DNA from: Sphingomonadales bacterium
GTDB lineage: Bacteria > Pseudomonadota > Alphaproteobacteria > Sphingomonadales > Sphingomonadaceae
Reading direction: 5' to 3'
Assembly (NCBI GenBank): GCA_025351405.1
Contig: JANXVZ010000027.1
Location: 21,275-85,274 of the forward strand
DNA: 64,000 nucleotides
The stretch's first letter is position 1. Each line of letters opens with the position of its first letter. The position numbers were made by a program, and so were the translations under genes. Shown piece by piece: positions 44,019-58,777 of the stretch. The notes beneath the pieces are model-generated. The model ran no database searches. It saw only the letters and a list, made by a program, of their open reading frames with translations, and was not told where the DNA came from.

Positions 44019-46082
44019 ATGACGAGGAACTGGGCTTGGGCCGCGGTCGCGGCGTTGACGGTGTTTGGTGGCGGGATGGCCACGGCGCAGGAAACGGCTT
44101 CGCCGACCACGCTGACCACCGATCACTATTTCGACCTCGAAAAGATCGACGACGCGCAGATCTCGCCTGACAGCACGCAGGTCATCTATGTGCGGCAACA
44201 GGCCAATCGCATCGAGGACCGTTGGGACAGTGCGTTGTGGATCGTCAATGCCGATGGTTCGCACAACCGGTTGTTCGCCAAGGGCAGTTCCGCTCGCTGG
44301 TCGCCCGACGGCAAGCGGATTCTCTATCTGGCCGAAGGCGATGCCGGCAAGGCGCAGATCTTCGTGCGCTATGTCGACGTCGAGGGGCCGGCAACGCCGG
44401 TGACCCATGGCACCGAAGCCGTTGCCAACCCGCGCTGGGCCCCGGACGGGCGATCGATCGCCTTCACGATGTTCGTGCCGCAAAAGCCGAACTGGGCAAT
44501 CAGCATGCCGCCGGAACCCAAGGGGGCAAAATGGATGGCGGCCCCCCGGATCGTCGACAAACTCCACTACCGCTTCGACCGCACCGGCTTTGTCGAGGAC
44601 GGCGTCGATGCGCTGTTTGTCGTCGCTGCCGACGGCGGTGCCACGCGGCAAATCACGGACCAGGGCATAGCGCCGGGCGCCGGCGAATTCCGTGGACCAA
44701 TCGATTTTGGTTGGTCCCCGGACAGCAAGTCGATCGTTTTTGCCGGAATCCGCGATTTCAACGCCGATCTTGCCTATCAACATACGCAATTGCTGGTGAC
44801 AGAGGTGGCATCTGGGCGCGTTCGTGACCTGTTGCCGGTATCAGGCGACTGGAGCCGGCCGACAGTATCGCCCGATGGTCGCTGGATCGCCTTCACCGGC
44901 TACCCGAAATCCGAAAAAACCCATTCGGTCGCCGACCTTTATGTCATTCCGGCGGGCGGCGGTGCAATGCGCAAGATCAGCGGCGACCTCGATCGCGATC
45001 CGATCGGCCTCAAATGGGCGGCGGACAGTTCCGGGGTCTATTTCGATGTCGAGGACCATGGCAGCCGCAACGTGTTGTTTGCCGCGCTCAAAGGCGGTGT
45101 CCGCGTGCTGACACGGGGTGCACACATGCTGTCACTCGATTCCGTCAGTCGCGACCTGACCGCTGCCGGGACGCTGTCCGATACCGACCATCCGGCCGAA
45201 GTCGTGCGCTACAGCTTGCGCCGCGCCGGTGAACCGGCGCTGCTGACGCATGTCAACGCCGCCCTGATCGCCGGCAAGACGCTGGGCCATACCGAGGCCA
45301 TCGGCTGGCAGTCATCCGGGGGCACCAAGGTCGAGGGCTGGTACATCACGCCGCCAGGCTTCGACCCCGGCAAGAAATACCCGCTGATTCTGGAAATCCA
45401 CGGCGGACCCTATGCCAGCTACAACAGCGGCTTCAGCTATATGTGGCAGAATTTTGCGGCAAACGGCTATGTCGTGCTCTATCTCAATCCGCGTGGCAGC
45501 ACCGGCTATGGGCACGCGTTCTCCGACGGGATCGACCATGATTATCCCGGCCCCGATCTCGACGACCTGCTGTCCGGTGTCGATGCGATGGCCGCGAAGG
45601 GTTTCGTCGATACGGCCCGGCTGTATGTTTCTGGCTGCAGCGGCGGAGGCGTGCTGTCCAGCTGGGTGACGAGCCATTCGGATCGCTTTGCCGCGGCGGC
45701 AGTGCGCTGTCCGGTCACGGACTGGGTGAGCCTCGCCGGTCATACGGACGTTCCGCTGTTCACCTACAGCTTTTTCAAAAAGCCGTTCTGGGAAGATCCA
45801 TCCGATTGGCTGTCGCACTCCTCGCTCATGCACGTCGGCAAGGTGACGACACCGACCCTGCTCATGACCGGGGTGCTCGACCGTCGCACACCCATGCCGC
45901 AGACGGAGGAATATTATGCCGCGCTCAAGGTGCGCGGGGTCCCGGCAACGCTGTTGCAATTCGAGGGCGAGTTTCACGGCACAGGCTCGAAACCATCGAA
46001 TTTCATCCGGACGCAGCTTTACATGATGAGCTGGTTCAAGCGTTATTCGCGCGGCGCGGATGGAAAGGTGCGGGAAAACTGA
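44019..46082 (+). CDS. Exported S9 peptidase (second paralogue)
   Basis: WSPDG repeats, YPLILEIHGGP, NPRGSTGYG, SGCSGGG, DRRTP and EFHG. Confidence 0.93.
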   Translation: MTRNWAWAAVAALTVFGGGMATAQETASPTTLTTDHYFDLEKIDDAQISPDSTQVIYVRQQANRIEDRWDSALWIVNADGSHNRLFAKGSSARWSPDGKRILYLAEGDAGKAQIFVRYVDVEGPATPVTHGTEAVANPRWAPDGRSIAFTMFVPQKPNWAISMPPEPKGAKWMAAPRIVDKLHYRFDRTGFVEDGVDALFVVAADGGATRQITDQGIAPGAGEFRGPIDFGWSPDSKSIVFAGIRDFNADLAYQHTQLLVTEVASGRVRDLLPVSGDWSRPTVSPDGRWIAFTGYPKSEKTHSVADLYVIPAGGGAMRKISGDLDRDPIGLKWAADSSGVYFDVEDHGSRNVLFAALKGGVRVLTRGAHMLSLDSVSRDLTAAGTLSDTDHPAEVVRYSLRRAGEPALLTHVNAALIAGKTLGHTEAIGWQSSGGTKVEGWYITPPGFDPGKKYPLILEIHGGPYASYNSGFSYMWQNFAANGYVVLYLNPRGSTGYGHAFSDGIDHDYPGPDLDDLLSGVDAMAAKGFVDTARLYVSGCSGGGVLSSWVTSHSDRFAAAAVRCPVTDWVSLAGHTDVPLFTYSFFKKPFWEDPSDWLSHSSLMHVGKVTTPTLLMTGVLDRRTPMPQTEEYYAALKVRGVPATLLQFEGEFHGTGSKPSNFIRTQLYMMSWFKRYSRGADGKVREN

Positions 46083-46150: not shown

Positions 46151-48040
46151 TCATTTTGCCATCGGCAGGCTGACATAGCTCGCGTCGGGGCCTGCGATGA
46201 CTATCTTCTGGGTGGCCTTCACATAATCCGCCGGCTTGGCAAAAAAGATGTTGGGCACGAAGCTCTGCGGGTTGCGGTCGTACAATGGGAACCAGCTCGA
46301 CTGGACCTGCACCATGATCCGGTGGCCGGGGGCGAACACATGGTTGGCCGTCGGCAGCGCAAAGCTGTATTTCAGCGGCGTGTTCGCGGCCAACGGCCGT
46401 GCCTCGGCAAGGTTTTCGCGATAGCGGCCGCGAAAGATGTCCATGGCGATTGCCAGTTGGTAGCCGCCCATCGCCGGCTTCTCCGGCACCTCATCAGGAT
46501 CGACATCGATCAGCTTGACGACCCAGTCGCTGTCGGTGCCGCTGGTCGATGCGGTCAGATGGACCATCGGCGTTCCCGCGATCGTCACCGGTTCGGTCAG
46601 CACGGGGCCGGTAAAGGTCAGGACGTCGGGGCGCCCTGAAACCGCGCGCTGGTCGTCTGCCAGCCATGTCGGCCATGGGTTGCCGTCATAGCCCTGCGGG
46701 CGGATCGGGCGGGCTTCATAGGTCACCGGGCTGGCGGGATCGGAGACATACTCGGCCGTGGCATCCCCCGCCGCCGCTTCGAAACCCAATGTCATGCCCG
46801 GCTTCAGATACAGTCTTGTCGCGCCTTCGTCCTGCGACCAGCGCGACAGCTTTTGCCACTGGTTGGTGCCGCTTTGAAACGCCGTCACCGGCGCCACGTC
46901 CATCGGCGTGCCCTTCAGGTAATGCGCCAGGAAGGGCGCCAGCACGTCATGCCGCCATTGCTTGGCCGTGTCGGCGTCCCAGTCGATCGCGCCCAGGCTG
47001 CTGCCATTGTCGATGCCCTGGCCGTGGTGCCAGGGACCCATCGTCAGGAATACCATGTCGTTGCCGGCATCCTTGGGCTTCAGCGCGCGATACACCGCCA
47101 TCGCCCCATAAATGTCCTCCTGGTCCCACAGGCTGTGCACGAGCATTACCGGAACCTTGAGCGGCTGCCTGGCAAGCACGCGGTCCATCGCCTGTTCCTG
47201 CCAAAAGGCATCATAGGCGGGGTGTTGGGTAATCTTTTGATAAAAGCCGATCTGGTCGAGCCCGTGGCTGCTGGCCAGCGCACCGGCCGACCCGGCGCGC
47301 ATGTAAAGGTCGTACTGGTCGTAGACCGACGTGGTCCATTTCGACTTGTTGTCCCGCGTGGCGACCTGTTCCCAGATATAGGGCAGCCCGAATTGCCGGA
47401 ACGCGCCGTTGTGGAACCAGTCGTCGCCGCGCCAGCCGTCGACCATCGGGTTCATCGGCACGGAAACCTTGAGCGCCGGATGCGGATTGACCAGCGCCAT
47501 CAACGGGGTGAACCCGTCATAGCTGATGCCGATGATGCCCACCTTGCCATTCGATTCCGGCAGGTTCTTCACCAGCCAGTCGATCGTGTCATAGGTATCG
47601 GTCGCGTGATCGACCTTGGTCGGGTTCAGCGCCGTGCCGGCGAGCGGCCGGTTCATGACATAGCTCCCGCCCGAGCCGTATTTGCCGCGGACATCCTGGA
47701 CAACGCGGATATAACCGCCCGCGACAATCACATCGGCGGCATTGTCATACCCCTGCAGCACGCTGGCCAGTCGTCCGCTCTGGGCGTGCCCGGTCAGTTC
47801 CTCGGCATTATAGGGGGTGCGGGTCAGCAGGATGCCAGCATCCCTTGCGCCCTTGGGCACGAAGATGACGGTGTGGAGCTTTACCCCGTCACGCATCGGG
47901 ATTTCCACGATACGGCGGGAAAAATTGGCGTCCGGGTCGCCGGCGTCGTGGAGCTTGGCCGGACGCTCGTCATACTGCTGCGCCAAGGCCGGTGCCGCGA
48001 CGGCGGCGAGAGCGCCAGCGGCGAGAAGCGTGCGGATCAT
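46151..48040 (-). CDS. CocE/NonD family hydrolase (alpha-amino acid ester hydrolase-like)
   Basis: IPMRDGVKLHT, ILLTRTPY, QDVRGKYGS, nucleophile GISYDG, WDQED and WHHG. Signal peptide present. Confidence 0.92.
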   Translation of the reverse strand: MIRTLLAAGALAAVAAPALAQQYDERPAKLHDAGDPDANFSRRIVEIPMRDGVKLHTVIFVPKGARDAGILLTRTPYNAEELTGHAQSGRLASVLQGYDNAADVIVAGGYIRVVQDVRGKYGSGGSYVMNRPLAGTALNPTKVDHATDTYDTIDWLVKNLPESNGKVGIIGISYDGFTPLMALVNPHPALKVSVPMNPMVDGWRGDDWFHNGAFRQFGLPYIWEQVATRDNKSKWTTSVYDQYDLYMRAGSAGALASSHGLDQIGFYQKITQHPAYDAFWQEQAMDRVLARQPLKVPVMLVHSLWDQEDIYGAMAVYRALKPKDAGNDMVFLTMGPWHHGQGIDNGSSLGAIDWDADTAKQWRHDVLAPFLAHYLKGTPMDVAPVTAFQSGTNQWQKLSRWSQDEGATRLYLKPGMTLGFEAAAGDATAEYVSDPASPVTYEARPIRPQGYDGNPWPTWLADDQRAVSGRPDVLTFTGPVLTEPVTIAGTPMVHLTASTSGTDSDWVVKLIDVDPDEVPEKPAMGGYQLAIAMDIFRGRYRENLAEARPLAANTPLKYSFALPTANHVFAPGHRIMVQVQSSWFPLYDRNPQSFVPNIFFAKPADYVKATQKIVIAGPDASYVSLPMAK

Positions 48041-48255: not shown

Positions 48256-48528
48256 TCAGCGCTTGTCGTCGCCCGACCTTGTATCCCCGCCACCGGTACG
48301 GGTGTCACCGCCGCCCGATCGCGTATCGCCGCTGCCGGTGCGGGTGTCACCACCCCCGGAGCGGGTGCCGTCGCTGGTGACGGCGGGTTCGGCGGGCGGG
48401 GCTTCCGCCGCCGGGGCCACCGCTTGTTCCGAAGCCGTGGCGTCGGTCGGCGGGGCCGGGGCCTTTTGTTTGCCACACGCCGAAAGCGGCAGCGCTGCAA
48501 CGACGGCGATGGCAAGAATTGCACGCAT
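48256..48528 (-). CDS. Small lipoprotein (90 aa) with C-terminal [S/T]G[G/S]GDTR repeats
   Basis: AAAGGT RBS, lipobox LSAC, Pro/Ala linker, then a repeat tail. Confidence 0.75.
   Translation of the reverse strand: MRAILAIAVVAALPLSACGKQKAPAPPTDATASEQAVAPAAEAPPAEPAVTSDGTRSGGGDTRTGSGDTRSGGGDTRTGGGDTRSGDDKR
48259..48375 (-). repeat. 21-bp (7-aa) tandem coding repeat: four full units at 48277-48360 plus degenerate flanks
   Basis: Encodes SDGTR-SGGGDTR-TGSGDTR-SGGGDTR-TGGGDTR-SGDDKR, with synonymous codon differences between units. Confidence 0.9.
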
Positions 48529-48574
48529 TGTCGGACCTTTCATTGCGGCCCCCGGCCGTTCACGATTGTGAAAG

Positions 48575-50506
48575 CTATGCCAAACCCATCCGGCCTAGCA
48601 ACCGGTTATATCGGGCATCGTTCCGAAGTGGCGCGAACATCGGGTCGATGAGCGTCGAGGCCATGCCGCCATCGCGGATGTCATAGGCGCGTTCCAGCGC
48701 CGCAAAGGCATCCTCCGTGCGGCCCCATTGTGCCAGCACCTGGGCCTGCTGATAGCTGGCGTTGTCGCCGTGCAGCGTAACCAGTTCCGTCAATGCCGCT
48801 TCGGCTGCCGGCCGGTTGCCAAGCTTGTGGTCGACGATCGCCAGACCGGCCAGCCGCAATATCGGCAAAGGCTCGGCGGCAAAGGCGGTGCGGGCCGCCG
48901 AAGCATCGGCCAGCATCAACTGGGCAAAACCGATCTGGGAATGCGCAGAAGACAGCTTCGCGTTCATCGCCAGCGCCTGTTCTGCCCGCGCCACTGCACT
49001 CCGGTAATTGCCTGTGGCAAGTTCGATGGCGGAATCGGCACGAAAGGTGCGGGGATTGAGCGGGTCGAGCTGTTCGGCGTGGACGATCACCCGGCGCGCA
49101 TCCTCGCCGCGCCCCGCCTTGGCAGTAAAATAGGCGTACATCAGCAGGATATCGGCATCCCCCTGTCCCAGGGCAAAGGCACGGTCATACGCGGTGCGCG
49201 AGCCCCTGAAGTCGAGAAAGCCGTTGAGGGTGGCATAGCCCAGCGCAAGATGTGCCGCGGCGAGGTCGGGTGCCAGCGCCACCGCCCGCTGTGCGGCAGC
49301 AACCGCCGCGCCGTAGGTATCGACGATGCGGTCTGCCTTGGCGTACAGGCTGGCGATCCCGGCCAGGGAGCGCGAGCGCGCCGCATGGGCGGCGGCAAAA
49401 CCGGGGTCGAGCGATATGGCTTCGTCGAAGCGCGCCAGCGCGGCGCGATCCGCGCTCTCGCCGGCGTCGCCGTTGAACAACGCCCGCCCGCGCAGGAAAG
49501 CGTCATAGGCGGCAACGACAGTGGTTCCGCCGGGGGCCTTGCCGCCCGCCGTGGTGACATGACTGAGCAGCGCGCTGGCGACGGTGACCGCAATCTCGCT
49601 CTGCAATGCGAAAATGTCATCGAGCTTGCGGTCGAAACTTTGCGACCAGCTGGCAAAGCCGGCCGCCACATCGGTCAACGTCACATCGATGCGGACAAGG
49701 TTGCCGGATTTTCGCACATTGCCGTCGAGCAGATAGCCGACGCCGAGCTTGCGGGCGATCTCCCGTGCATCTTCCTTGTGATCGCGAAACTCGTTCGACG
49801 ATGTCGGCGCGGCGACCTTCAGCCCGGCGACGCGGACGAGGGCCGCACGAACCTCCTCGCAAAGACCCTCGGAGAAATAGTCCTGGCTCCTGTCGCCGCT
49901 GAGATTGGCAAAGGGCAGGACCGCCAGCGCATTCCTGACAACACCTTGCCGCCACGGCTTGATGGCGACCATGGCTGCGGCGGCTGCGAGCACGGCGACG
50001 CCGCCACCCCCGGCAATCAGCGCGCGGCGGGAAACCCAGGTTCGCGCCACTGGGGCGGAATATTCGAGGTCGACGGTGTCTGCAGCGGCTGCGATGCCGC
50101 GCTCAAGGCTGGCGAACTCGGCAGCGTCGGCTCGCCTGTTCCAGCGCGACAGGTCGATCGTGTGATATTGCCGAAAGCCCAGGGGCGGTTCCGCGCCATC
50201 GATGGTGACGGGCACCAGCCGCTTGCGATCGCGGGCATGGGCAGCCTCGTCGCGCACCCAGTCCGATGCGACCGAATTTGCGGACCAGACGACGATCACG
50301 GCTTCGGCTGCGGCAAGCTTGCCCTCGATGGTCCTGGCAAAGGCCGCGCCGCCCGCGATCAATGCGTCCCACCACAGCGGGTAGCCGGCAACGATGAGCG
50401 CATCGACCAGCGGACGCACCTTTTCACGGTCAGCGCGAGCATAGCTGACGAACAGGCCCGGTTTGACAGCCACCATCGCATCCTGGTCGTTGGCCGTGAC
50501 CTTCAC
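48575..50506 (-). CDS. TIR domain - TM - TolB-N-like - TPR protein
   Basis: TIR motifs LFVSYARAD, WWD, VIVVWSANSVASDWVRDEA (catalytic-type Glu); hydrophobic helix ALIAGGGGVAVLAAAAAMVAI; LAVLPFANLSGD...YFSEG; TPR helices. Alternative ATG at 50476. Confidence 0.9.
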   Translation of the reverse strand: MKVTANDQDAMVAVKPGLFVSYARADREKVRPLVDALIVAGYPLWWDALIAGGAAFARTIEGKLAAAEAVIVVWSANSVASDWVRDEAAHARDRKRLVPVTIDGAEPPLGFRQYHTIDLSRWNRRADAAEFASLERGIAAAADTVDLEYSAPVARTWVSRRALIAGGGGVAVLAAAAAMVAIKPWRQGVVRNALAVLPFANLSGDRSQDYFSEGLCEEVRAALVRVAGLKVAAPTSSNEFRDHKEDAREIARKLGVGYLLDGNVRKSGNLVRIDVTLTDVAAGFASWSQSFDRKLDDIFALQSEIAVTVASALLSHVTTAGGKAPGGTTVVAAYDAFLRGRALFNGDAGESADRAALARFDEAISLDPGFAAAHAARSRSLAGIASLYAKADRIVDTYGAAVAAAQRAVALAPDLAAAHLALGYATLNGFLDFRGSRTAYDRAFALGQGDADILLMYAYFTAKAGRGEDARRVIVHAEQLDPLNPRTFRADSAIELATGNYRSAVARAEQALAMNAKLSSAHSQIGFAQLMLADASAARTAFAAEPLPILRLAGLAIVDHKLGNRPAAEAALTELVTLHGDNASYQQAQVLAQWGRTEDAFAALERAYDIRDGGMASTLIDPMFAPLRNDARYNRLLGRMGLA

Positions 50507-50536: not shown

Positions 50537-51586
50537 CTAGTGTGTCGTTACGGGGTTGGAAAGCTTTGCTCCGGCATCCCTGATCCAGTCCCGATAGGCC
50601 GATACATTGGTGTAGATGGCCGGTGTATCGGGCAGCGCGCAGCCGCGCCCCCACGACACCAGGCCAACCAGCACCCGCTCGCTGCCCTGCGCTCTCGTCA
50701 TCGGCCCGCCGCTGTCGCCGTTGCAACTGTCGACCCCGGGGCGGTCGGACACAGCGCATACCGTCTGTGCGACAGCACGGTCGCGGTAGTTGGGCAGCGC
50801 CGCGCAGGCCGGGTCCTGCGGGGTCTGGTTGATCTGCATCAGGATCGGCGACATGTGGTTGAGCGTCTTGCCGTCGCGCGCCATCTCGCCGCCGCCTGAA
50901 TCGCGCGCCAGCGTCCGGCCCCAGCCGGTGATGCGCAGGCGGTCACCCTGGCCTAGCGGCACATCACCGGGGCGCGAGCCAAGGATGCGGATCCGCGCCT
51001 GTTCCCGCCGGAAACGCCGCGCCGGCGCGTTGTCCGCGGCGATCCGCAGGATGGCAATATCGTTCAGCGGCGGATCACCGCGCACATAGCCGGGATGTTG
51101 CTGCCATGCGACAATGCGAAAGGTCACGCCGTTGTTCTTCAGGTTCTGGGTCCCCATCCGGACGCCGCGCGCCGTTCCAAAGCCCGCGACATTGTCCAGA
51201 CAATGGGCAGCCGTGAGCACGAGATCGCCGCCGATATATACGCCACCGCAGCGGTGGGCGATTTCCCATTTTTCCTTCTCTGCAAGATGGAAGCATCCCT
51301 TGCCGGGCTTGCAGTCGTCGGCGATCTCCTGCGGCGTGTAGACATGGGTCGAATAGATCTGCACTTGCCAGGGGGCGCTGCCTGCGGGCGCCGCCGAACC
51401 GCCGACGATGCGGCCTTCTCCCTCCGGGCTTTCGGGCGGAGCGGGGGTGGCAGCGGGAGTGGCAGGGGGCGCCTCCGGGGCCGCTGCCCCTGCAGGCTCT
51501 GCTGCTGGCTGCGCAGCCGCTGCCGGCGCCAGGCAGGCAAGCGCCGACCAGGCCAGCGTCACCGAGGCAAGGACCAGATATTTCAT
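50537..51586 (-). CDS. Exported trypsin-like serine protease (S1) zymogen
   Basis: Signal peptide, Pro/Ala propeptide, R|IVGG, HRCGG, LTAAHC, NDIAIL and DSCNGDSGGP; GLVSWGRGC. Confidence 0.93.
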   Translation of the reverse strand: MKYLVLASVTLAWSALACLAPAAAAQPAAEPAGAAAPEAPPATPAATPAPPESPEGEGRIVGGSAAPAGSAPWQVQIYSTHVYTPQEIADDCKPGKGCFHLAEKEKWEIAHRCGGVYIGGDLVLTAAHCLDNVAGFGTARGVRMGTQNLKNNGVTFRIVAWQQHPGYVRGDPPLNDIAILRIAADNAPARRFRREQARIRILGSRPGDVPLGQGDRLRITGWGRTLARDSGGGEMARDGKTLNHMSPILMQINQTPQDPACAALPNYRDRAVAQTVCAVSDRPGVDSCNGDSGGPMTRAQGSERVLVGLVSWGRGCALPDTPAIYTNVSAYRDWIRDAGAKLSNPVTTH

Positions 51587-53601
51587 GGCGGTGACCCCTT
51601 TCGCATGACCAGTGCGTCTTCGATCGTGACGGTCCAGTCGCCCAGCGTCGGCAGGCCGCCATCGCGGGCGCCGCTGCCGCCATTGGTGCAGACGCCGCGC
51701 GCTTCGGCCTCGGTATCGCACGGCCCCGACATGCGGCGGCGCATCGGTGGCTGCTCCAGGGCTGCCACATTGATCGGCGCGTCGGTCGCCAGAATCACAA
51801 ATCGGTATAGCCCGGTGGTGTTGAGCGCAAAGGGGCCGGGCCGTTGCGCGGCACCCCCGGGCATCGGCGGATCCTTGCCATGCGCGGTCGGAATCAACTG
51901 GGTGATCCCGTACCGATTGTCGATGACCAGCACCGAGATATAGCGCGCCGCGGCGCCTTTGTTGGTCACAGTGAGGACCAGCGGGGTATCGACGGGCACA
52001 CGGCGTTGTTTGTCGACAGGTTCGGGGCAGGTCTGGAGCGGATGATCGAGCCGGGTCGAAAGGCACAGGGCAAGCCCGGCCTGTTCAGCGCTGCCGGACG
52101 CCAGCGAGACCAGGCGCTGGGCATTGTATGCCGGCAGCAGCGCCATCCGCAGCTGTTCGGCAAGATCCGGCTCGGTGACAGGGCCAATTGTGGCGAGGCC
52201 GTCGCCATCACCCGAATTCAGGTAGACCGGAACATCATCCGCGGTGCCACGACGCAGCAGATTGAACTGGGCCGAGGACCCGGCAGTGACGACGTCGACA
52301 AAGCCCAGCGAGGCGAGCGCCTTTCTGAGCCGGCTCTGGTCCGGTGGGGTTGCTTCGGATACCGAGGCTTTTAGCCGGTCGTTGCCGAAGGCATGGGCGG
52401 TTTCACGCCCAACCAGTATCGGCGGGAGCGGGCGTTCCGGTTGGCTGTCGAGGCTCAACCGGGCCTGCCCGTCGGTGATCACGGTCACTGTCGCCAGCGC
52501 CAGCGGCTTGGCTGCATCGTTCAGCGCGTCGGCCTGGTTCGCGAACAGGGCGAATTTCGATCCGACGCTCATCCCCAGCAGCCGCCCGGCGGCGAGGGCG
52601 ATGCCGTCGGTCCCGGCTTCGGCATCGAACAAGGCGACGCCGATCGCCTCCCCGCCGAAACGCGCCTGGAGTGCGCCTTCGGCCTGCGGATGCTGGCGCT
52701 TGTGGCCGCCCTGTTCCACCCTCAGCCGCACGGCGGTGGCGATATCCCCAAAGGTTGCGTCCGGCCGGGCGACAAGCGCCTGGGCAAAGGCAGTGGTGAA
52801 GACGCCATGGACACTGGCGCCCGCGACGACCTCTCGGGCTTCCTCGTCGTCGCGGGAGGCGCCGAAATGAACGCGGTAGCCGCCGCCGGGACCGACAGCC
52901 GCCAGATCCGGGCGGAAATCGGCGTGATGCCCGATCGAGACGCCCTTGACGCCGCGATTGAAGCCTTCGCCGGCCTCGCCGCGCGTAGCGGTGCCTGAGT
53001 TGCACGAATCGAAGATGGTCACGACATTGACGCCGCGGGCGCTGGCGACATCGATGATGCGGCGGATCTCGCGATCGACGATGTCGGCCGCGGCGGTGGC
53101 ATCCGGGTTGCGCGCATCGGTCGGCAGGATGGTGCTGTCCACCCCGGAGGCCTGGTCGAAAACCTGGTCGTCGGCGATGGTCGAGCCGTGCCCTGCGAAA
53201 TAGAAGATCACCGTGTCACGCGGTGCCGAAGCGGCGATCAGGCTGGTCAGTGACGCGAGGATCTGCTTGCGCGTGGCGCAGCCGTCGGTGAGCGTGATCG
53301 AAAGCCCATTCGACGTCGCGCACTTGCCCGGCACCGCCGTATCGAACGACAGGCGATAGGCAATCGCCAGGGCCTGCTTGATTGCCTGGGCGTCCGACAC
53401 GGCCCCCCGCAAATCGCCGAAATCCGCATCGGGATAGGCAGGTCGCCGTGAAAACTGGTATTTGTCGATCCCGACGAACAGCCCGCGGATTGCCGGAGCG
53501 GCGTGCCCGTTCTGTGCGGCCGACGCGGCCGGGGAGGTCTGTGCGGCCGGCGCGGCGGCCGATGCCAGCAAAAGCGGCAGCGTGAGCCACAGCCGCTTCA
53601 C
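51583..53601 (-). CDS. Exported caspase-family (C14) protease with C-terminal DUF4384-like domain
   Basis: Signal peptide, GLFVGIDKY, DLRGAVSDA, IFYFAGHGS (His), IFDSCNSG (Cys) and HGVFTTAF. GTGA and ATGA overlaps with its neighbours. Confidence 0.9.
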   Translation of the reverse strand: MKRLWLTLPLLLASAAAPAAQTSPAASAAQNGHAAPAIRGLFVGIDKYQFSRRPAYPDADFGDLRGAVSDAQAIKQALAIAYRLSFDTAVPGKCATSNGLSITLTDGCATRKQILASLTSLIAASAPRDTVIFYFAGHGSTIADDQVFDQASGVDSTILPTDARNPDATAAADIVDREIRRIIDVASARGVNVVTIFDSCNSGTATRGEAGEGFNRGVKGVSIGHHADFRPDLAAVGPGGGYRVHFGASRDDEEAREVVAGASVHGVFTTAFAQALVARPDATFGDIATAVRLRVEQGGHKRQHPQAEGALQARFGGEAIGVALFDAEAGTDGIALAAGRLLGMSVGSKFALFANQADALNDAAKPLALATVTVITDGQARLSLDSQPERPLPPILVGRETAHAFGNDRLKASVSEATPPDQSRLRKALASLGFVDVVTAGSSAQFNLLRRGTADDVPVYLNSGDGDGLATIGPVTEPDLAEQLRMALLPAYNAQRLVSLASGSAEQAGLALCLSTRLDHPLQTCPEPVDKQRRVPVDTPLVLTVTNKGAAARYISVLVIDNRYGITQLIPTAHGKDPPMPGGAAQRPGPFALNTTGLYRFVILATDAPINVAALEQPPMRRRMSGPCDTEAEARGVCTNGGSGARDGGLPTLGDWTVTIEDALVMRKGSPP

Positions 53602-56600
53602 GGGCGCAGCCGTCGCAACACAAGCTGGCTGGCGGAGCCCGTGAAGTCGAACAGCGACGGTTCCTGAACCGGGCGCCGCGCCGCGGTGCCATCGAGGAAA
53701 TCGACACCGCGCGCACCGCTCGGCGCGCCGGGGCGGCGCGCAATCCGGCTGTCCTGGCTCAGCATCGGCAGGCGATGCACGGCGTAACGCAGCCATTCGT
53801 CGAGTGTGATCGCGCCGTCGCCATTTTCATCGGCCATCCCGCCATTGGCAGTGATGCCTTCATCGGCAAGCGCATAGGTGAGCAACCCTTGCCCCAGGTT
53901 GGCGGATTCGAGCGCGATGTCGTCGGCCTGGGTCGCGGCCAGGATCCGCATCCGCTTGTCAAATGCCAGCTGGCCCAGGCCGCCGTCCCCCATCGGGCCA
54001 GGACGGAAACCGCCTGCATCGACGCTGGCGGCCGAATGACAGGCATCGATGATCATCGCCATCTCGCCGGCATCGATGCGTCGCAGAAAGCGCGACATCT
54101 CAAGCGTCGAGACAAACGACGCAACATCGGGCGCCAGGGTCGCGTCGGGCCAGCGTGCGTCGGTGGGCAGCAGGTAGAAATTGCCTTGCCGATCGGCCCA
54201 GCCATGGCCCGAAAATGAAATCAGCACGACATCGTCCGGCCCGGCGGCATCAAGCGTCGACGCATCGATGCCCCGCGCCTGCAGCCGCGCCAGTGCTTCA
54301 CGGCGGGGGCTTCCGCCAAGGATGCCGAAGACATCGGCCAGCGCCGCCCGTGTTATGTCCGGGCTGCCGGGCTTCCCGGTACCCGCCAGCACCAGCAGGT
54401 GGACATTTTCGGCATCGGGCAGCGTGGCCAGCCGCGCACCGATCAGCGCTGCATCGTCCGCGGCGAAATTGAGCCGGAGCCGGGGTTCGGCATAACCGTC
54501 GATGCCGATGGCCACGACAAAGATGCGCCGCCTTGACGTGGCGACGGACGGCGGCCGGTAGAGTTGCCGGGCGGTTTCGCTCTTAACCCGGTCCTCGTTG
54601 AAGGCATAGGCGGTGAATTCGACCGGTGCGCCGCTGGTGGAGACCCTGACCGGCAGGCGAATTCGCGCCACCCCATCCTTGCCGACAACCACCCGGTTTT
54701 CCTGCCGCCAGCGCTTCAGGTCGAACTGCAGCGCATCGGGAGCGCCGCCCGGCGACTGGGCAACGAGGCTGCCGTTGCGGAACAACCGCAGGTCGTACCC
54801 GTCGCTGTGCAACTTGCCGTTGGGCGCATCGGGACGCGATCCGGGGCGCAGTTCGAGACCGACAAGCACATTGCCGGGGGTCGCAGCCTTGGTGATGCCG
54901 GTAATCCGCACCGTCGGCAGCACCCGGTTGATATCGGCCAGCCGGGCGACGGGGCGAAACGCGCTGGCGCAGCTGTCGGTCAGCGTACAGGCCATCACGC
55001 GGGGTCCGAGCCGGGGCTCGAAGAAATTGCGCATGAAGGTCTGCGGCCCCAGCGACTGCAGCGGCGCGTCGGACACCACCCAGCGAAAGTCGCGGGTGTC
55101 GGCACCCAGGTCGGTATCATAGCGACCATCGGGGGCCATGGTGAAAAAGCTGCGATCATTCACGAGGTAGGTTCGCAACACCTCCGGGCTGGCAAAAGCG
55201 TCGTCGCGGCGGGGACGCCACAGGACGATGCCGTCGGTGTTGGTCACCACCCAGCGCAATGGACTGCCCGGGATCGCGCCTTCCGCCACGACATTCTTGA
55301 ACAACAGCCGTGATTCGCGCGCTCCGCCGGCTATGCTGACGGCACTGATCGGTTGATCGGCGATTTCGGCAAACCGTTCGTACCAGCTCTTGCCATCGCT
55401 GCTGACCGTTGCCCGGGCCAACGCCTCCACCGGCGGCGCATTTCCTTCAAGCGCGGTGAAAGGCGCGGCGGCCATCTCCCAGCGGTAAAACCTTCCGTCG
55501 CGGCTCAGCCCGACGGACTTGCTGTCCGCTGCAAATTCGATCACCGGATAGGTGCTCCCGTCCGGCAGCGCGGTCTCGGCGATCACGGTTCCGTCTTCTG
55601 TATCGATGGCGCGCACGAGATGGCTGCTTGTCGTCACGATCAGGCGCTTGCCGTCCGGCGTTGCCGCAAGCGTTTCGATAAAGGTGCCGCTCGCGTCGGC
55701 AGGCCCCAACGCCTGCCAGCCGGTTGCCGGATCATAGCGCTGCAGGCCTTGTTCCCCGCGGCCGTGCAAGGCGGTGCAGTTGCCGAGCCCGGCGCCGATG
55801 ATGACGCCGTTGCCAAGCGCCTGTGTGTAGCAGCGGAAGGGGATCAAATCCCCCGCCGCCTTGCCGGTGGACGCCGCGATCACCCGCGACACACCGGGCT
55901 TGCCCGCCTGGGCGGAATTGCGGTCCCCGCCGCTGTTGTCGCCCGGCAAAAGCACCTTCTCGTCATCCAGCCAGGTGACCGTCGAATGGAACCCCTCGAC
56001 CGTGACCCGGGATACGACGGCCCAGACGGCAAGATCGAACACCATGATACCGGACCGGCGTTGTTGCCCCGCGGTGGCGGGCGTCTGGGCGACGTCGAAA
56101 ATCAGCGCCATCCGCTTTCCATCGGGGGACAGTGCAGCGCCAAAGGCCATGGTCGGCTCGGGCTTGTCGAGCTTGCGCACCGGCCTGCCCCGCGCGTCCT
56201 CGATGACGAAGGGATAGTCGCCGACATCGATGCGAAGCTGGCCGTTGTGCGAAGCGATGACCCTGCCTTGCAATCCCGTCCCGATGCACGGCGCCATGGG
56301 CTCCCCTGTCTGGACCTGCCAGTCGCCGCCGCCGAGCGGCGGCAGGCGCATCGTCAGCGCGGTGCAAAAGCTGCTGTCGGTATCGCGAATGTTGGCCTTG
56401 ACCGTCAGGCCGGAGTTGTGATCGACCCTCGCGTCCCACGCCTCGATATTGGACTTCGGGTCAAAGGCGGGAAACGGGACAAGGTTGACGATATCGCCCG
56501 TCGCTGCATCCCACACCGTGACGCTGCGCACGAGGTTGTCGATGCCGATCACGAACCTATCATCCCGGCTCCAGGCGAAAACGGTCTGTGTCGGGATGGT

Positions 56601-56777
56601 GCGTTGCAGCACAAGCTTTGGGTAGGCCGCGTCACTGGGGGCAATCCGCTTGCCGACGTTTGCCGCGTCGCCCGCCGTGGCGGCCCTGGCGCATGGCGAG
56701 CAACCCAGGGTGAAGGCGATCACCAGCATGTTCGGGATGTTGTGCGCCCAATATGCCCTGCGGCGGATGCTGGCCAT
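53598..56777 (-). CDS. Beta-propeller (WD40/PD40-like) - caspase-family (C14) fusion protein, probable signal peptide
   Basis: Propeller repeats FAWSRDDR, ALSPDGKR, ATPDGKR and VSSDGK; FVVAIGIDGY; ISFSGHG (His); IIDACHSA (Cys); GLLTYAL; ADENGDGAITLDEW. Confidence 0.88.
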   Translation of the reverse strand: MASIRRRAYWAHNIPNMLVIAFTLGCSPCARAATAGDAANVGKRIAPSDAAYPKLVLQRTIPTQTVFAWSRDDRFVIGIDNLVRSVTVWDAATGDIVNLVPFPAFDPKSNIEAWDARVDHNSGLTVKANIRDTDSSFCTALTMRLPPLGGGDWQVQTGEPMAPCIGTGLQGRVIASHNGQLRIDVGDYPFVIEDARGRPVRKLDKPEPTMAFGAALSPDGKRMALIFDVAQTPATAGQQRRSGIMVFDLAVWAVVSRVTVEGFHSTVTWLDDEKVLLPGDNSGGDRNSAQAGKPGVSRVIAASTGKAAGDLIPFRCYTQALGNGVIIGAGLGNCTALHGRGEQGLQRYDPATGWQALGPADASGTFIETLAATPDGKRLIVTTSSHLVRAIDTEDGTVIAETALPDGSTYPVIEFAADSKSVGLSRDGRFYRWEMAAAPFTALEGNAPPVEALARATVSSDGKSWYERFAEIADQPISAVSIAGGARESRLLFKNVVAEGAIPGSPLRWVVTNTDGIVLWRPRRDDAFASPEVLRTYLVNDRSFFTMAPDGRYDTDLGADTRDFRWVVSDAPLQSLGPQTFMRNFFEPRLGPRVMACTLTDSCASAFRPVARLADINRVLPTVRITGITKAATPGNVLVGLELRPGSRPDAPNGKLHSDGYDLRLFRNGSLVAQSPGGAPDALQFDLKRWRQENRVVVGKDGVARIRLPVRVSTSGAPVEFTAYAFNEDRVKSETARQLYRPPSVATSRRRIFVVAIGIDGYAEPRLRLNFAADDAALIGARLATLPDAENVHLLVLAGTGKPGSPDITRAALADVFGILGGSPRREALARLQARGIDASTLDAAGPDDVVLISFSGHGWADRQGNFYLLPTDARWPDATLAPDVASFVSTLEMSRFLRRIDAGEMAMIIDACHSAASVDAGGFRPGPMGDGGLGQLAFDKRMRILAATQADDIALESANLGQGLLTYALADEGITANGGMADENGDGAITLDEWLRYAVHRLPMLSQDSRIARRPGAPSGARGVDFLDGTAARRPVQEPSLFDFTGSASQLVLRRLRP

Positions 56778-57052: not shown

Positions 57053-58777
57053 ATGACCGCTGAGCCATTGACCGTGGGAGTCACTGGCCATCGCCCGGCC
57101 CGGTTGGTCGGTGTCGACACTGCCGTTCTCGCAGCGCAGATCTGCGCGACGCTCGAGGCTTTTGCAGACGCTGCCGGCCATGATCGCAAATTCCGGCTGG
57201 TGAGCAGCCTCGCCGAAGGGGCCGACAGCATCGCCGCCGGGGTTGCACTGCAGATGGGTTGGCAACTCGACGTCACGCTGCCGTTCGATCGCGTTCGCAA
57301 TGCCCAGGACTTTCCGGATTCGGATGCGCTTGCAGCGCTCGATGCCTTACTCCTTCGTGCCGATTCCGTGTTCGAACTGTGCAGCGGTTGCCTCGAGGCC
57401 GAGCCGGCCAGCACGGCTTATGAACGCGCCGGCCGGGTCATGCTCGCGCAGTGCGATGTGTTGCTGGCCGTGTGGGATGGCAAGCCTGCCCAGGGGCGCG
57501 GCGGCGCCGCACAAATCGTCGCCGAGGCGGTGCTGCAGGGCGTGCCCGTCTTGCACGTCGCCCTGGCGGACGGTGCGCGGCCCTTGTTGTTATGGGACCG
57601 GCTGGACGAACATGACGTCGGGCAACACACGCTGGATACAATTCCCCGCGCGGGCCTTGAGCAGTTGCCGCGGCTGGTGGCGCATCTGCTTGGCGATGCC
57701 GACAGCGGTGCCTTGCCGCGCCACTACCGTGGCCGCCGACGCCTGACCGTCGCGGTGGCCTATGCAATGCTGATGGCGGTCATGGCCGTCCGGAGTTTGC
57801 GCGGCGCCGACTTTGTCAAAGCCGACCCGGATATCGCGCGGGACGCATTGCTGGCCGGATGTTCGGCGACCCGGCAAGCCACGCCGTTCGGCGAGCGGCT
57901 GACCCGCGTGCTCGCTCCAGGCTTTGGCTCGGCCGACGCCAGCGCCACCGATTTCTCGCGCCGTTTCCGCAGCGCCTATGTCGCCAACTTCGTCCTGGCG
58001 GCGCTCGCCGTCGTCACCGCCCTTGTCGGGCTGGCGCTGCCCAAGTCGGCCAAGCCGGGGCTGATCGTCATCGAACTCGCGATCGTCGCGACGATCCTGA
58101 TCGTCACGCGCATGGGCAACAAATCGGGCTGGCACCGGAGCTGGCTGAGCAGCCGCCAGGTTGCCGAGCAATTGCGCTGCCTGGCGATCACGGCGCAGCT
58201 TGGCGATCTGCGGCTGCGGGCCAATACCCATCCAACCACCCGCAACGTGGCGCGGCAGCTCGGGCTGCCAAATGCCATCGCCGATGCGCCCTATCTGGCG
58301 GCAATTCAGGCAGATCTGGGCCGATTGATCGATTCGCAGATCGACTATCTGGAGCGCGACGCCAGCGTTATGCATCGGCTGGAGCATCGCCTGCACCGGC
58401 TCGGCGGCTTGCTCTTCCTCGCCACGGCCACGATCTGCCTTCTCTACCTGGCTGCCGAGGTGGCCATCATGGCCAATCCGGCGTGGCACCATATCGTCGA
58501 GCCGGTGCTGATCTGGGGGACCATATTGAGCGCGGGGTTCCCTGCGATCGGGGCAGCCATCTACGGTATTCGCATGCAGGGCGACTTCAGCGGCTCGGGT
58601 GAACGAAACGCCGCCCTTGCCGCCGAACTTCGCCGGGTTCGCCAGCTTACGCAGAAGACACCCCAAACCTATGATACGCTTGCCCGGCACGCGAAGATCG
58701 TCGCGGACCTGATGGTCGCCGATCTGACCGATTGGTTCCGGGCGTACAAGGCGCGGCCGCTCGCTCTGCCCGGTTGA
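57053..58777 (+). CDS. SLOG (YspA/DprA-LOG-like) domain fused to two SLATT/DUF4231-like two-TM modules
   Basis: VGVTGHR, SSLAEGAD, YERAG and DVLLAVWDG...GRGG...VPVLHV in the SLOG domain; two hydrophobic hairpins followed by W...R..AEQLR and QIDY...GIRMQGDF motifs. Confidence 0.78.
   Translation: MTAEPLTVGVTGHRPARLVGVDTAVLAAQICATLEAFADAAGHDRKFRLVSSLAEGADSIAAGVALQMGWQLDVTLPFDRVRNAQDFPDSDALAALDALLLRADSVFELCSGCLEAEPASTAYERAGRVMLAQCDVLLAVWDGKPAQGRGGAAQIVAEAVLQGVPVLHVALADGARPLLLWDRLDEHDVGQHTLDTIPRAGLEQLPRLVAHLLGDADSGALPRHYRGRRRLTVAVAYAMLMAVMAVRSLRGADFVKADPDIARDALLAGCSATRQATPFGERLTRVLAPGFGSADASATDFSRRFRSAYVANFVLAALAVVTALVGLALPKSAKPGLIVIELAIVATILIVTRMGNKSGWHRSWLSSRQVAEQLRCLAITAQLGDLRLRANTHPTTRNVARQLGLPNAIADAPYLAAIQADLGRLIDSQIDYLERDASVMHRLEHRLHRLGGLLFLATATICLLYLAAEVAIMANPAWHHIVEPVLIWGTILSAGFPAIGAAIYGIRMQGDFSGSGERNAALAAELRRVRQLTQKTPQTYDTLARHAKIVADLMVADLTDWFRAYKARPLALPG

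Follow-up and report, generated by a model that had tools for sequence, protein, structure and literature searches.

The comparative pattern around one trypsin gene of a Sphingomonadales bacterium suggested a two-step protease relay that may feed a membrane TIR receptor. The gene (50537..51586) lies in the 64,000-nucleotide stretch of contig JANXVZ010000027.1 analysed here (the window), and it is the sole S1 trypsin gene of the 3.0-Mb genome. As read from sequence, its product is a genuine exported protease of the trypsin type, predicted to be synthesised in an inactive form. On balance, this exported S1A zymogen is probably one step of a conserved cell-envelope signalling module and would be activated by a caspase.

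The trypsin precursor

The features of the gene were as follows (arrows mark known or predicted cleavage points).
50537..51586 (-), pre-pro-trypsin gene, S1A, 349 aa (P0001), from the open reading frame and its translation, Pfam, AlphaFold2 and Foldseek
51512..51586 (-), Sec-like signal peptide, residues 1-25 (MKYLVLASVTLAWSALACLAPAAAA then Q), predicted cleavage AAA↓Q, from the hydrophobic core and AxA↓Q
51410..51511 (-), propeptide rich in Pro/Ala, residues 26-59, with the acidic patch ESPEGEGR at its end, from AlphaFold2 disorder and the consensus of relatives
51398..51412 (-), activation site Arg59↓Ile60-Val-Gly-Gly (Ile16 equivalent), from the translation and homologues
51257..51352 (-), 37-loop insertion, residues 79-110, with ~28 extra residues, from alignment to trypsins and AlphaFold2

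The Pfam Trypsin domain (PF00089) was matched over profile positions 1-220 of 220 (E = 6e-36). His128 (51205-51203), Asp176 (51061-51059) and Ser292 (50713-50711) form the His57-Asp102-Ser195 triad in the S1A contexts TAAHC, DIAL and GDSGG, and they were invariant in the 34-sequence family alignment. A preliminary description of this DNA had covered 51240-51586, which encodes residues 1-115 of the 349; the S1 pocket DSCNGDSGG that it quoted was found beyond those coordinates yet within the gene, at residues 286-294. There D286 is equivalent to Asp189 (codon 50731-50729), D291 to Asp194 and S292 to Ser195. Asp at the base of the pocket, followed by SWGRGCA with small residues at positions 216/226, is the pattern of Arg/Lys primary specificity, and Asp189 was nearly invariant in the alignment within the caspase-linked clade. 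The pairs C113/C129, C261/C277 and C288/C316, corresponding to disulfides 42-58, 168-182 and 191-220, were kept in the family alignment.

The AlphaFold2 model had a mean pLDDT of 85.5, and its best Foldseek matches were plasma kallikrein, factor XIa and TMPRSS11D (TM ~0.84, normalised to target, against kallikrein and factor XIa). Trypsinogen and the regulatory S1A enzymes were ~26-28% identical to the protein. Unlike the regulatory S1A proteases, uPA and tPA included, it has no clip, kringle, apple or other N-terminal domains. The NCBIfam and PADLOC searches returned no specific family for it, and VesC (6bqm) was among its sequence matches. The chain stops 14 residues past the protease domain (...DAGAKLSNPVTTH) with no hydrophobic tail. 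Membership of the GlyGly-CTERM/VesB type was rejected because there was neither an Ig-like domain nor a sorting tail, and Pfam found Trypsin domains only.

The signal peptide, the Pro/Ala propeptide and the Arg directly before IVGG (EGEGR↓IVGG) that had been described earlier were all borne out. Signal peptides and membrane topology were assigned by eye throughout; the AxA↓Q pattern was common to the trypsin homologues in the alignment. The possibility of a lipoprotein was dismissed, since ALAC is not a canonical lipobox and its Cys is not conserved. The propeptide comprises 34 residues, is free of Cys and is left disordered by AlphaFold2 (pLDDT < 50 for residues 21-26 and 32-58); with its Pro/Ala-rich composition, this excluded the protein from the clip-domain proteases. 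A consensus of acidic-x-G-x-R closed the propeptide in all caspase-linked relatives. The Arg59 codon occupies 51412-51410 and the IVGG codons 51409-51398. Because R↓IVGG was kept in 98 of the 119 database homologues, this site is not due to chance. The protein has both parts of a trypsinogen-type switch, namely Arg before IVGG and Asp194 (D291) to receive the new N-terminus. Vertebrate trypsinogen is similar in that an acidic stretch precedes Arg/Lys↓IVGG, as in DDDDK↓IVGG.

The switch had been called eukaryote-style, and this wording did not hold. VesB of Vibrio cholerae is a bacterial trypsin zymogen that is cut at Arg32-Ile33 and autoactivates in trans (PMC6219818), so such switches are not peculiar to eukaryotes. 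VesB, a relative of VesA and VesC, shares the S1A fold, signal peptide, short propeptide, Arg↓Ile site and Asp189-type specificity. However, it ends in an Ig-like domain and a GlyGly-CTERM tail, the latter a target of rhombosortase, whereas the present trypsin ends right past the protease domain. VesB also lacks the acidic patch before the site, a comparable 37-loop insertion and an adjacent caspase or TIR receptor.

The extra Cys-containing loop noted earlier was real, and its Cys pair did not prove to be its defining feature. Between Tyr78 (Leu33 equivalent) and His111 (His40 equivalent) there were 32 residues, compared with 4 in bovine trypsin. The segment HVYTPQEIADDCKPGKGCFHLAEKEKWE (residues 81-108) holds Cys92 (51313-51311) and Cys98 (51295-51293). 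Structure prediction, the check that had been proposed for this insertion, gave 10-residue block means of pLDDT 89-97 across it and two short helices (85-90 and 106-110). It was far longer than in vertebrate S1A proteases, and helical in the model. The insertion was family-wide; all 34 aligned sequences had D91 and H111, and nearly all had E108. As a hallmark, the Cys92/Cys98 pair was rejected, being limited to the nearest clade (13/119 homologues). Homologues had 0 or 2 Cys in the insertion, or 1 plus a propeptide Cys; the last arrangement, in which a propeptide-to-37-loop disulfide is possible, was confined to another subclade (L003, L004, L087 and L113), where the insertion may tether the propeptide.

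In tPA and thrombin the 37-loop is an exosite. A caspase-docking role of the insertion was judged unlikely, because relatives that lack the caspase retained it. Its retention irrespective of caspase genes makes a contact surface for shared partners the best reading; were it an exosite, its target would more probably be the receptor or the lipoprotein than the caspase.

The neighbouring genes

The trypsin gene lies in a conserved envelope module of propeller-caspase, caspase, trypsin, TIR-TM-TPR receptor, repeat-tail lipoprotein and SLOG-4TM protein. The other genes of the module were:
53598..56777 (-), exported beta-propeller-caspase, 1059 aa (ATG 56777), with an EF-hand-like loop (PADLOC caspase 2.9e-12)
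51583..53601 (-), exported metacaspase-like C14 protease with a C-terminal DUF4384-like domain (Pfam Peptidase_C14 3.6e-14)
48575..50506 (-), TIR-TM-TPR protein, with cytoplasmic TIR, one membrane helix and extracytoplasmic TPR (Pfam TIR_2 2.5e-22 and TPR matches)
48256..48543 (-), small lipoprotein whose tail consists of five Arg-ended repeats (GGGDTR type), from sequence
57053..58777 (+), SLOG-4TM (SLATT-like) membrane protein, divergently transcribed (weak DUF4231 and SLATT_3 matches)

The genes are tightly packed. The stop of the C14 protease overlaps the trypsin start by 4 nt (ATGA), an overlap also present on four other contigs, and its own GTG start overlaps the stop of the preceding gene (GTGA). 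The receptor gene begins 30 nt past the trypsin stop. The C14 protease starts with the signal peptide VKRLWLTLPLLLASAAAPAAQ; by eye, all three proteases had signal-like N-termini and should therefore share a compartment. The best PDB relatives of the C14 protease were the metacaspases Yca1, CaMca1 and AtMC4, and weak WD40, PD40 and EF-hand Pfam matches were found in the propeller-caspase. The TIR was the only one in the genome, and neither trypsin nor C14 domains occurred away from this locus.

The order caspase-caspase-trypsin-TIR/TPR-(lipoprotein)-SLOG recurred in genome and metagenome loci, and the neighbourhood was kept across genera in several gene orders. In 22 of the 27 genomes the distance from the trypsin to a TIR-TPR orthologue was no more than 10 kb, the lipoprotein gene followed the receptor gene in most related loci, and SLOG-4TM homologues adjoined the trypsin/TIR pair in many. 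PADLOC gave weak TIR matches at the locus and no system call. The TIR_2 protein (2.5e-22) and the SLOG/SLATT-like neighbour (weak matches) recurred together across loci, and the SLOG-4TM protein is likely the output of the TIR.

The lipoprotein repeats varied with the trypsin pocket. In our reading of the repeat tails, the repeats ended in Arg/Lys in ~21 of 26 loci with an Asp189 trypsin; in the Phe189 clade they read GSTDQ or GSTDH, and Arg/Lys was lost. The repeat end residue thus tracked the S1 residue of the trypsin across loci, and the Arg-ended repeats are likely a substrate of the trypsin. In the caspase-less loci the trypsin was still partnered with the lipoprotein and the receptor, which places it next to the receptor in the pathway.

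Secreted trypsins serve nutrition in many bacteria, and S9 and S15 peptidase genes lie just downstream in the window, as might be expected if the trypsin were an ordinary digestive or housekeeping enzyme with accidental neighbours. This explanation is very improbable. It is contradicted by the conservation of the neighbourhood across genera, by the translational coupling to the caspase gene, by the placement of the family mostly at loci with the TIR-TPR receptor and by the covariation of pocket and repeats.

The activation site and the caspase genes

The preliminary description had supposed that a co-encoded caspase triggers the trypsin in a true cascade. The first part gained support from the relatives and from the caspase pockets. 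Two acidic S1 residues, Asp95 and Asp211 in TbMCA2, are found in Arg/Lys-specific metacaspases (PMC6426788, PMC4357240). Their equivalents were invariant in 24 orthologues of the C14 protease, where the GHG and DSC dyad was also conserved, and in 25 orthologues of the propeller-caspase, with a GHG and DAC dyad. As both caspases keep these residues, both are predicted to cleave after Arg/Lys.

About 80 family trypsins were compared, 28 directly after a caspase and 53 caspase-less. The scored set held 27 and 52 of these, respectively, and L095 and L118 were added outside it. An R↓IVGG-type site was present in 28/28 caspase-adjacent trypsins (27/27 scored plus L095), as against an Arg-Ile/Val site in 6/53 caspase-less ones (5/52 scored plus L118). 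Those six (L087, L099, L101, L127, L131 and L118) show that the caspase is not strictly required for an Arg-Ile/Val junction in these sequences. None of the six had the acidic context, five had basic residues nearby, and the canonical acidic site was absent from all 53 caspase-less relatives. Among independent database homologues, a C14 gene stood immediately upstream in 7/7 with the acidic site, four of them with the 4-nt overlap, and in 0/2 without the site.

By these comparisons the association is partly inherited. The tree held at least four supported changes of caspase state, and the phylogenetic control gave 4-5 independent contrasts that were concordant and 0 discordant (p = 0.06-0.125). 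After this control, the tie between the R-IVGG site and an upstream caspase gene is suggestive and not significant. A scan of the genome collection with the family alignment picked up generic trypsin motifs; among its 80 loci, only ~20 were family members and the others were set aside. A class-level sample yielded no further family trypsins (0/400 other genomes). A family-level sample of 15 more hit genomes gave 14 new loci, as L120 was the same record as L001; the well-supported contrasts were still 5, so the sign test remained underpowered.

A further tie came from gene fusion. In some relatives, long trypsins without a caspase gene have the C-terminal domain of the caspase joined to their N-terminus (hhalign probability 99.6%, E = 6e-25), a fusion that connects the two proteins. 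This homology was established by hhalign; Pfam gave only sub-threshold DUF4384 matches for the caspase C-terminal domain and the fused N-domains.

The second part of the earlier claim, a true cascade, stood less well, as the contrasts numbered only 4-5, the order of action is one that we infer, and autoactivation is a live rival. The trypsin could activate itself as VesB does (PMC6219818), given its Asp189 pocket and the resemblance of its activation site, EGEGR↓I, to the presumed substrate repeats, GGDTR↓S. Active copies would then cut Arg59 in trans, the caspases would act in parallel on the receptor, the lipoprotein or an invader, and the association would reflect shared descent, with which the non-significant corrected test is compatible. 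We regard this as a less probable account that deserves weight. Under it the site should outlive the loss of the caspase, yet the canonical acidic form did not persist in any caspase-less relative, and the domain fusion ties the two proteins together. Autoactivation of vertebrate trypsinogen is, moreover, held down by acidic residues that precede the scissile bond, and a comparable stretch is conserved here.

The order could also be reversed, with the trypsin maturing one or both caspases at Arg sites of the linker and a housekeeping envelope protease activating the trypsin. Conserved ...SGTATR... and G-x-x-R↓S/G sites follow the catalytic Cys in the caspase linker, and metacaspases are commonly matured by cleavage there. 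However, metacaspases usually process that linker themselves, and this order leaves the loss of the trypsin activation site in caspase-less loci unexplained. It also sits poorly with the position of the caspase-less trypsin next to the receptor. We consider it improbable.

The proposed relay and related systems

In the caspase-activated relay that we favour, Sec export would deliver an enzyme with a floppy, acidic propeptide of 34 residues. A cut after Arg59 would let Ile60 fold back on Asp291 (Asp194) and switch the enzyme on. Propeptide cleavage followed by insertion of the new N-terminus onto Asp194 is the classical trypsinogen mechanism. From comparative genomics, the first cut would most likely be made by the exported metacaspase-like protease, which is encoded directly upstream and translationally coupled. 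The propeller-caspase would possibly be the sensor or initiator, and trans-autoactivation may amplify the signal. The active trypsin (Asp189, Arg/Lys specificity) would most likely cut the Arg-ended tandem repeats of the lipoprotein, and short peptides would be released or exposed for the extracytoplasmic TPR of the TIR-TM-TPR protein. The next step would be a signal from the cytoplasmic TIR to the SLOG-4TM protein.

More tentatively, we speculate that one alphaproteobacterial family runs an extracytoplasmic mixed-class cascade. The propeller-metacaspase and the metacaspase would activate the trypsin at acidic-Gly-Arg↓IVGG, and the trypsin would trim a tethered repeat pro-peptide into ligands of the TPR-TIR receptor. 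Functionally it would correspond to Toll/Spaetzle and would draw on homologous TIR and S1A domains; sister lineages would have lost the caspase layer or replaced it with a direct fusion of domains.

We know of few bacterial caspase homologues with a known substrate, and here one would receive a defined job, the proposed bond being Arg59-Ile60 of the neighbouring pro-trypsin. Should this hold, we know of no earlier bacterial cascade in which a zymogen of the trypsin clan is switched on by an enzyme of the caspase clan. The natural variants (zymogen with caspase; no propeptide; fused caspase C-terminal domain with an altered S1 pocket and a matching repeat change) are a ready-made experimental series.

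The proposed use of a separate upstream protease as activator resembles the trypsinogen/enteropeptidase pair. However, the vertebrate activators are serine proteases, whereas the proposed activator here is a caspase-clan cysteine protease.

To our knowledge, Thoeris-type systems have no extracellular proteolytic input. The combination of a TIR protein with a SLOG or SLATT membrane protein is shared with several Thoeris types described in a preprint (bioRxiv 10.64898/2025.12.03.692087). The term 'trypsin' was absent from its text, and its passages on caspase, TPR and transmembrane proteins contained neither a membrane TIR with periplasmic TPR nor an exported protease input. The caspase-like protein of type IV Thoeris is a cytoplasmic effector downstream of the TIR, whereas the caspases here are exported and would act upstream. 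The conflict systems of Kaur, Burroughs, Iyer and Aravind (eLife 2020, 2021) likewise combine trypsin-like and caspase-like peptidases with TIR and TPR, and in the relevant passages the authors themselves liken multi-peptidase systems to eukaryotic cascades. As described there, NTPases, effector-associated domains or nuclease effectors form their core, and these passages described no exported caspase-trypsin pair with a TIR-TM-TPR receptor.

If the relay is real, it would provide an extracellular proteolytic input for a membrane TIR receptor, in parallel to animal Toll signalling. The Drosophila Toll pathway, with its clip-domain protease cascade, Spaetzle and the Toll receptor, is homologous to the module only in the S1A and TIR domains. 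The proposed likeness lies in extracytoplasmic zymogens cut after Arg, a processed ligand and a single-pass receptor with a repeat ectodomain and a cytoplasmic TIR. The upstream serine proteases of Toll would be replaced here by caspase-family enzymes. Its ectodomain is made of LRR, in contrast to TPR in the present receptor, which has the opposite membrane orientation and an N-terminal TIR. The TIR of the module is probably not an adaptor but an enzyme that signals to the SLOG protein in a Thoeris-like manner.

The trypsin gene and its neighbourhood

The gene under study encodes a pre-pro-trypsin of the S1A family. Its elements and the neighbouring genes are as follows (residues refer to the 349-aa product; ↓, cleavage site).

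50537–51586, minus strand: trypsin gene, intact, 349 codons
Residues 1–25: signal peptide, AxA↓Q, placed by reading against trypsin numbering
Residues 26–59: propeptide, Pro/Ala-rich, last residues ESPEGEGR
Ile60-Val-Gly-Gly: Ile16–Gly19 in trypsin numbering
His128, Asp176, Ser292: catalytic triad
Asp286 and Asp291: S1 Asp189 and activation Asp194
Core disulfides: three predicted pairs, all represented in the sequence
51583–53601, minus strand: C14 caspase gene
53598–56777, minus strand: beta-propeller-caspase gene
48575–50506, minus strand: TIR-TM-TPR receptor gene
48256–48543, minus strand: small lipoprotein gene after the receptor gene, tail ...TRSGGGDTRTGSGDTRSGGGDTRTGGGDTRSGDDKR
57053–58777, plus strand: SLOG-4TM gene
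44019–46082, plus strand, and 46151–48040, minus strand: S9 and S15 (X-Pro) peptidase genes

The trypsin start codon shares an ATGA overlap with the stop codon of the gene before it, and 30 nt separate its own stop from the start of the next gene downstream. The Pfam Trypsin profile was covered completely (E = 6e-36). The nearest solved relatives in sequence and fold were regulatory S1A proteases, namely plasma kallikrein, factor XIa, TMPRSS11D, uPA and Vibrio VesC. The AlphaFold2 model, built from 34 homologues, had a mean pLDDT of 85.5 and was confident except at residues 21–26 and 32–58. The signal peptide, the Pro/Ala propeptide and the Arg before IVGG reported in the preliminary description were all found on reading the sequence, and the S1 motif DSCNGDSGG was also present, inside the gene but beyond the interval first described. 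In every sequence feature open to testing, the protein agreed with the zymogen-type, Arg-specific subgroup of S1A. It shares the zymogen switch with VesB but lacks the features that define the VesB type, and membership of the clip-domain group was likewise rejected.

A database search yielded 463 relatives at E <= 1e-10, and the named ones all belonged to Sphingomonadales (Polymorphobacter, Allosphingosinicella, Sphingomonas). The close relatives, or trypsin family, occurred in 26/274 and 32/390 genomes in two samples of the window's own bacterial family, in 0/126 genomes from other families of the order, and in 0/400 other genomes of a class-wide sample. The distribution is thus patchy and narrow.

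When the flanks of related loci were searched with the window's neighbouring proteins, a recurring gene set was found: the large beta-propeller-caspase, another caspase bearing an additional C-terminal domain, the trypsin, the TIR/membrane helix/TPR protein, a lipoprotein of ~90 residues and the SLOG-4TM protein. A full-length TIR-TPR orthologue lay within 10 kb of the trypsin in 22 of the 27 trypsin-bearing genomes of the order-level sample, usually at <1 kb, and its orientation varied. In the window's own genome, trypsin, TIR and C14 domains were each confined to this one locus. The recurring neighbours and the single-locus occurrence indicate that the trypsin is a member of a dedicated module, and the conserved neighbourhood contradicts the alternative that it is an unrelated digestive enzyme.

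At three loci (L060 6819–8786, L107 9865–11700 and L108 6733–8688), and probably at L132, the receptor was a TIR-less variant that kept the periplasmic TPR part. In the three, its N-terminus consisted of three membrane helices and loops rich in His and Gly; the L132 match likewise began only at about residue 191. All four loci retained a zymogen-type trypsin together with both caspases, and no SLOG-4TM match was seen there. At two further loci (L111 1–3589 and L109 2172–2699) the module had neighbouring genes for ORC/CDC6-like ATPase and DNA methylase; this resembles a defence island, a setting that the window itself does not show.

No description of a caspase-trypsin-TIR-TPR module was found in the passages compared, which were those on conflict systems (Kaur, Burroughs, Iyer and Aravind, eLife 2020, 2021) and the Thoeris survey (bioRxiv 10.64898/2025.12.03.692087). 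In those passages, conflict systems that contain trypsin and caspase domains have a different construction, and trypsin is absent from the text of the systematic Thoeris survey.

The activation site and the upstream caspase

The caspase pair was present in only 9/27 genomes; wherever found, it lay directly upstream of the trypsin in the same orientation, without exception. N-termini were read for all family trypsins in 74 loci (82 proteins). All 27 scored caspase-adjacent trypsins, plus that of L095, began with a signal peptide and a short Pro/Ala propeptide, followed by an R↓[IVL][IV][GRKND]G junction; in most of them acidic residues lay within P3–P7 and P2 was Gly, Ser, Thr or Ala (DDDGGR↓IVGG, EEGDGR↓IVGG, EDEGSR↓VVRG). 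This junction was missing from 47 of the 52 scored caspase-less trypsins. The other five, plus L118, had an Arg-Ile/Val junction, never in an acidic context (0/6) and usually with basic residues nearby (5/6; KVRR↓VVGG, TVHR↓VIRG, NRLR↓VVGG), in most cases after a large N-terminal domain. Junction-less long forms had an N-terminal domain of ~300–450 residues and an xGGG junction. In junction-less short forms the signal peptide led almost at once into ...G(A/T)PWQAQIY, and the Ile16 segment was wholly missing. The short forms beside TIR-TPR genes in L007, L009, L012, L016, L019, L091 and L100 lacked Ile16–Gly19 and still had Asp194 and the triad.

In a prospective check, ten database homologues were picked on the N-terminus alone and their upstream genes were then looked up. 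A Peptidase_C14 gene lay directly upstream in 7/7 homologues with the acidic site, with an identical 4-nt overlap on four of the seven contigs; no caspase was found for the two homologues without the site or for the single one with a basic-context site. Maximum-likelihood trees computed from the catalytic domain without the N-terminus placed the caspase-linked trypsins in a grade rather than a single clade. The caspase state changed 6–9 times, and well-supported branches required at least 4 of these changes. Independent contrasts gave 4–5 pairs in which site and caspase changed together, 0 opposite and ~1 tie (sign test, p = 0.06–0.125), so the association is consistent and repeated but not statistically established. 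The earlier proposal that a caspase triggers the trypsin therefore gained good comparative support from a site that tracks the upstream gene, and the link is unproven.

The main rival is autoactivation, in which active trypsin copies cut the pro-trypsin. It has a bacterial precedent in the trypsin zymogen VesB of Vibrio cholerae, whose Arg32-Ile33 bond is cleaved by active VesB molecules nearby (PMC6219818). Self-cleavage is accordingly chemically plausible here, and the zymogen switch is not novel in itself. As the whole story, however, it is opposed by the disappearance of the canonical site along with the caspases and by the conservation of the acidic patch before the site. A patch of this kind suppresses the self-activation of trypsinogen.

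A second trypsin paralogue was found beside caspase-containing modules (L004 9908–11077, L113 9001–10104; also P0104, P0105, P0108, P0118, P0119). Its conserved junction, PEDEGDEYP...G-x-x-P↓IIRG, places Pro before the new N-terminus and so points to activation by another enzyme, possibly a prolyl-specific one. S9 and S15 peptidase genes are present in the window, but its own trypsin has Arg.

Caspase specificity and domain fusion

Both caspases were nearest to metacaspases (Yca1, Candida Mca1, AtMC4). The GHG and D-S/A-C dyad was kept in 24/24 and 25/25 orthologues of the two, as were the equivalents of TbMCA2 Asp95 and Asp211, which accommodate basic P1 residues (PMC6426788, PMC4357240). Orthocaspases cleave after positively charged residues (PMC6426788). 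From the Asp pair and this preference, the predicted Arg/Lys specificity of both caspases is well grounded. The caspase has a GTG start overlapping the upstream stop and the N-terminus VKRLWLTLPLLLASAAAPAAQ; that of the propeller-caspase is MASIRRRAYWAHNIPNMLVIAFTLGCSPCARAA. Judged by eye from these N-termini, both look exported, as does the trypsin.

In the long caspase-less trypsins, the N-terminal domain was homologous to the C-terminal domain of the window caspase (hhalign probability 99.6%, E = 6e-25, 209 columns; pairwise BLAST 5e-6 to 1e-4); Pfam gave only sub-threshold DUF4384 matches. Two architectures thus share this domain X: either caspase plus domain X is followed by a separate pro-trypsin, or domain X is fused to a trypsin with no caspase and no Arg↓IVGG site. 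Such a fusion is a classical signature of proteins working together, and it too counts against autoactivation as the whole story. It fits a scheme in which the signal or partner recognised by domain X would control the trypsin, by proteolysis in one architecture and directly in the second.

After DSCNSG, the caspase linker (51583–53601, minus strand) carries Arg sites, SGTATR and then G-x-x-R↓S/G, which are conserved across orthologues of differing linker length and are likely maturation sites. These make the reverse order possible, in which the trypsin matures the caspase, but that order leaves the tracking of site and caspase unaccounted for.

Lipoprotein repeats and the 37-loop insertion

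Equivalent lipoproteins followed the receptor gene in most loci, with tails of tandem units such as GEDDR, GSGDDR, GPDER, SSGDNR and AGEDK. By our own count, Arg/Lys-ended repeats occurred in ~21/26 loci with an Asp189 trypsin. The Phe189 clade (FSCRGDSGG) had GSTDQ or GSTDH units, without Arg/Lys, in 5/5 loci with a lipoprotein, and at a locus with a Gly189 pocket (GDC type) the lipoprotein ended in HGTSSGH. This covariation points to the trypsin as the enzyme acting on the repeats, with or without caspases; as it reflects one or two evolutionary events, it is supporting evidence and not proof. The Phe189 clade comprises the long trypsins of L008, L088, L089, L092, L094 and L096, often tandem duplicates, whose N-terminal domain is homologous to the caspase C-terminal domain.

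If the trypsin acts on the repeats regardless of caspases, it would adjoin the receptor step, with the caspases upstream of it. What would be new is the connection of a classical zymogen-type trypsin to activators of the caspase clan and to a membrane TIR receptor, a reading that is partly supported and in which the caspase link is putative. A Toll-like extracytoplasmic cascade is a serious possibility, though we rate it somewhat short of probable. The trypsin activation site (EGEGR↓I), the caspase linker sites (G-x-x-R↓S/G) and the repeats (GGDTR↓S) resemble one another, so a single specificity may be common to the three proteases; feedback would then be possible, as would autoactivation.

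The preliminary description had also noted an insertion with a Cys pair as a possible exosite; both are present, and their details needed correction. The Tyr78-to-His111 span has 32 residues, against 4 in bovine trypsin, so that the 37-loop insertion comprises ~28 extra residues, including Cys92 and Cys98. As had been suggested, its structure was predicted, giving two short helices (block mean pLDDT 89–97, AlphaFold2). The insertion occurred in every subgroup examined, at 23–47 residues, with D91 and H111 invariant and E108 nearly so, and is a family trait. The Cys pair lacks that status. Of the 119 relatives compared, 104 had an insertion free of Cys, 13 carried two Cys there (spaced CX5C in the window's clade and CX7C in a second one) and 2 carried one. 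Cys92-Cys98 is a predicted local staple of one clade.

The 37-loop adjoins the prime-side subsites and acts as an exosite in tPA and thrombin. Because the insertion is kept in caspase-less relatives, recognition of the shared partners, either the receptor ectodomain or the tail of the lipoprotein, is more likely for it than recognition of the caspase. Speculatively, the Arg of the following repeat might be bound by the conserved acidic residues D91 and E108.

Both relatives with one insertion Cys had a propeptide Cys too. In L003, L004 and L087 (and P0114, P0116), one insertion Cys (GDECKNY) accompanied one propeptide Cys ~10–14 residues before the cleavage site, e.g., ERCKARLEKDGGGR↓IVGG, which suggests a disulfide that would tether the propeptide after cleavage in this subclade, as in chymotrypsin. 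The L113 trypsin was a sister of that of L004.
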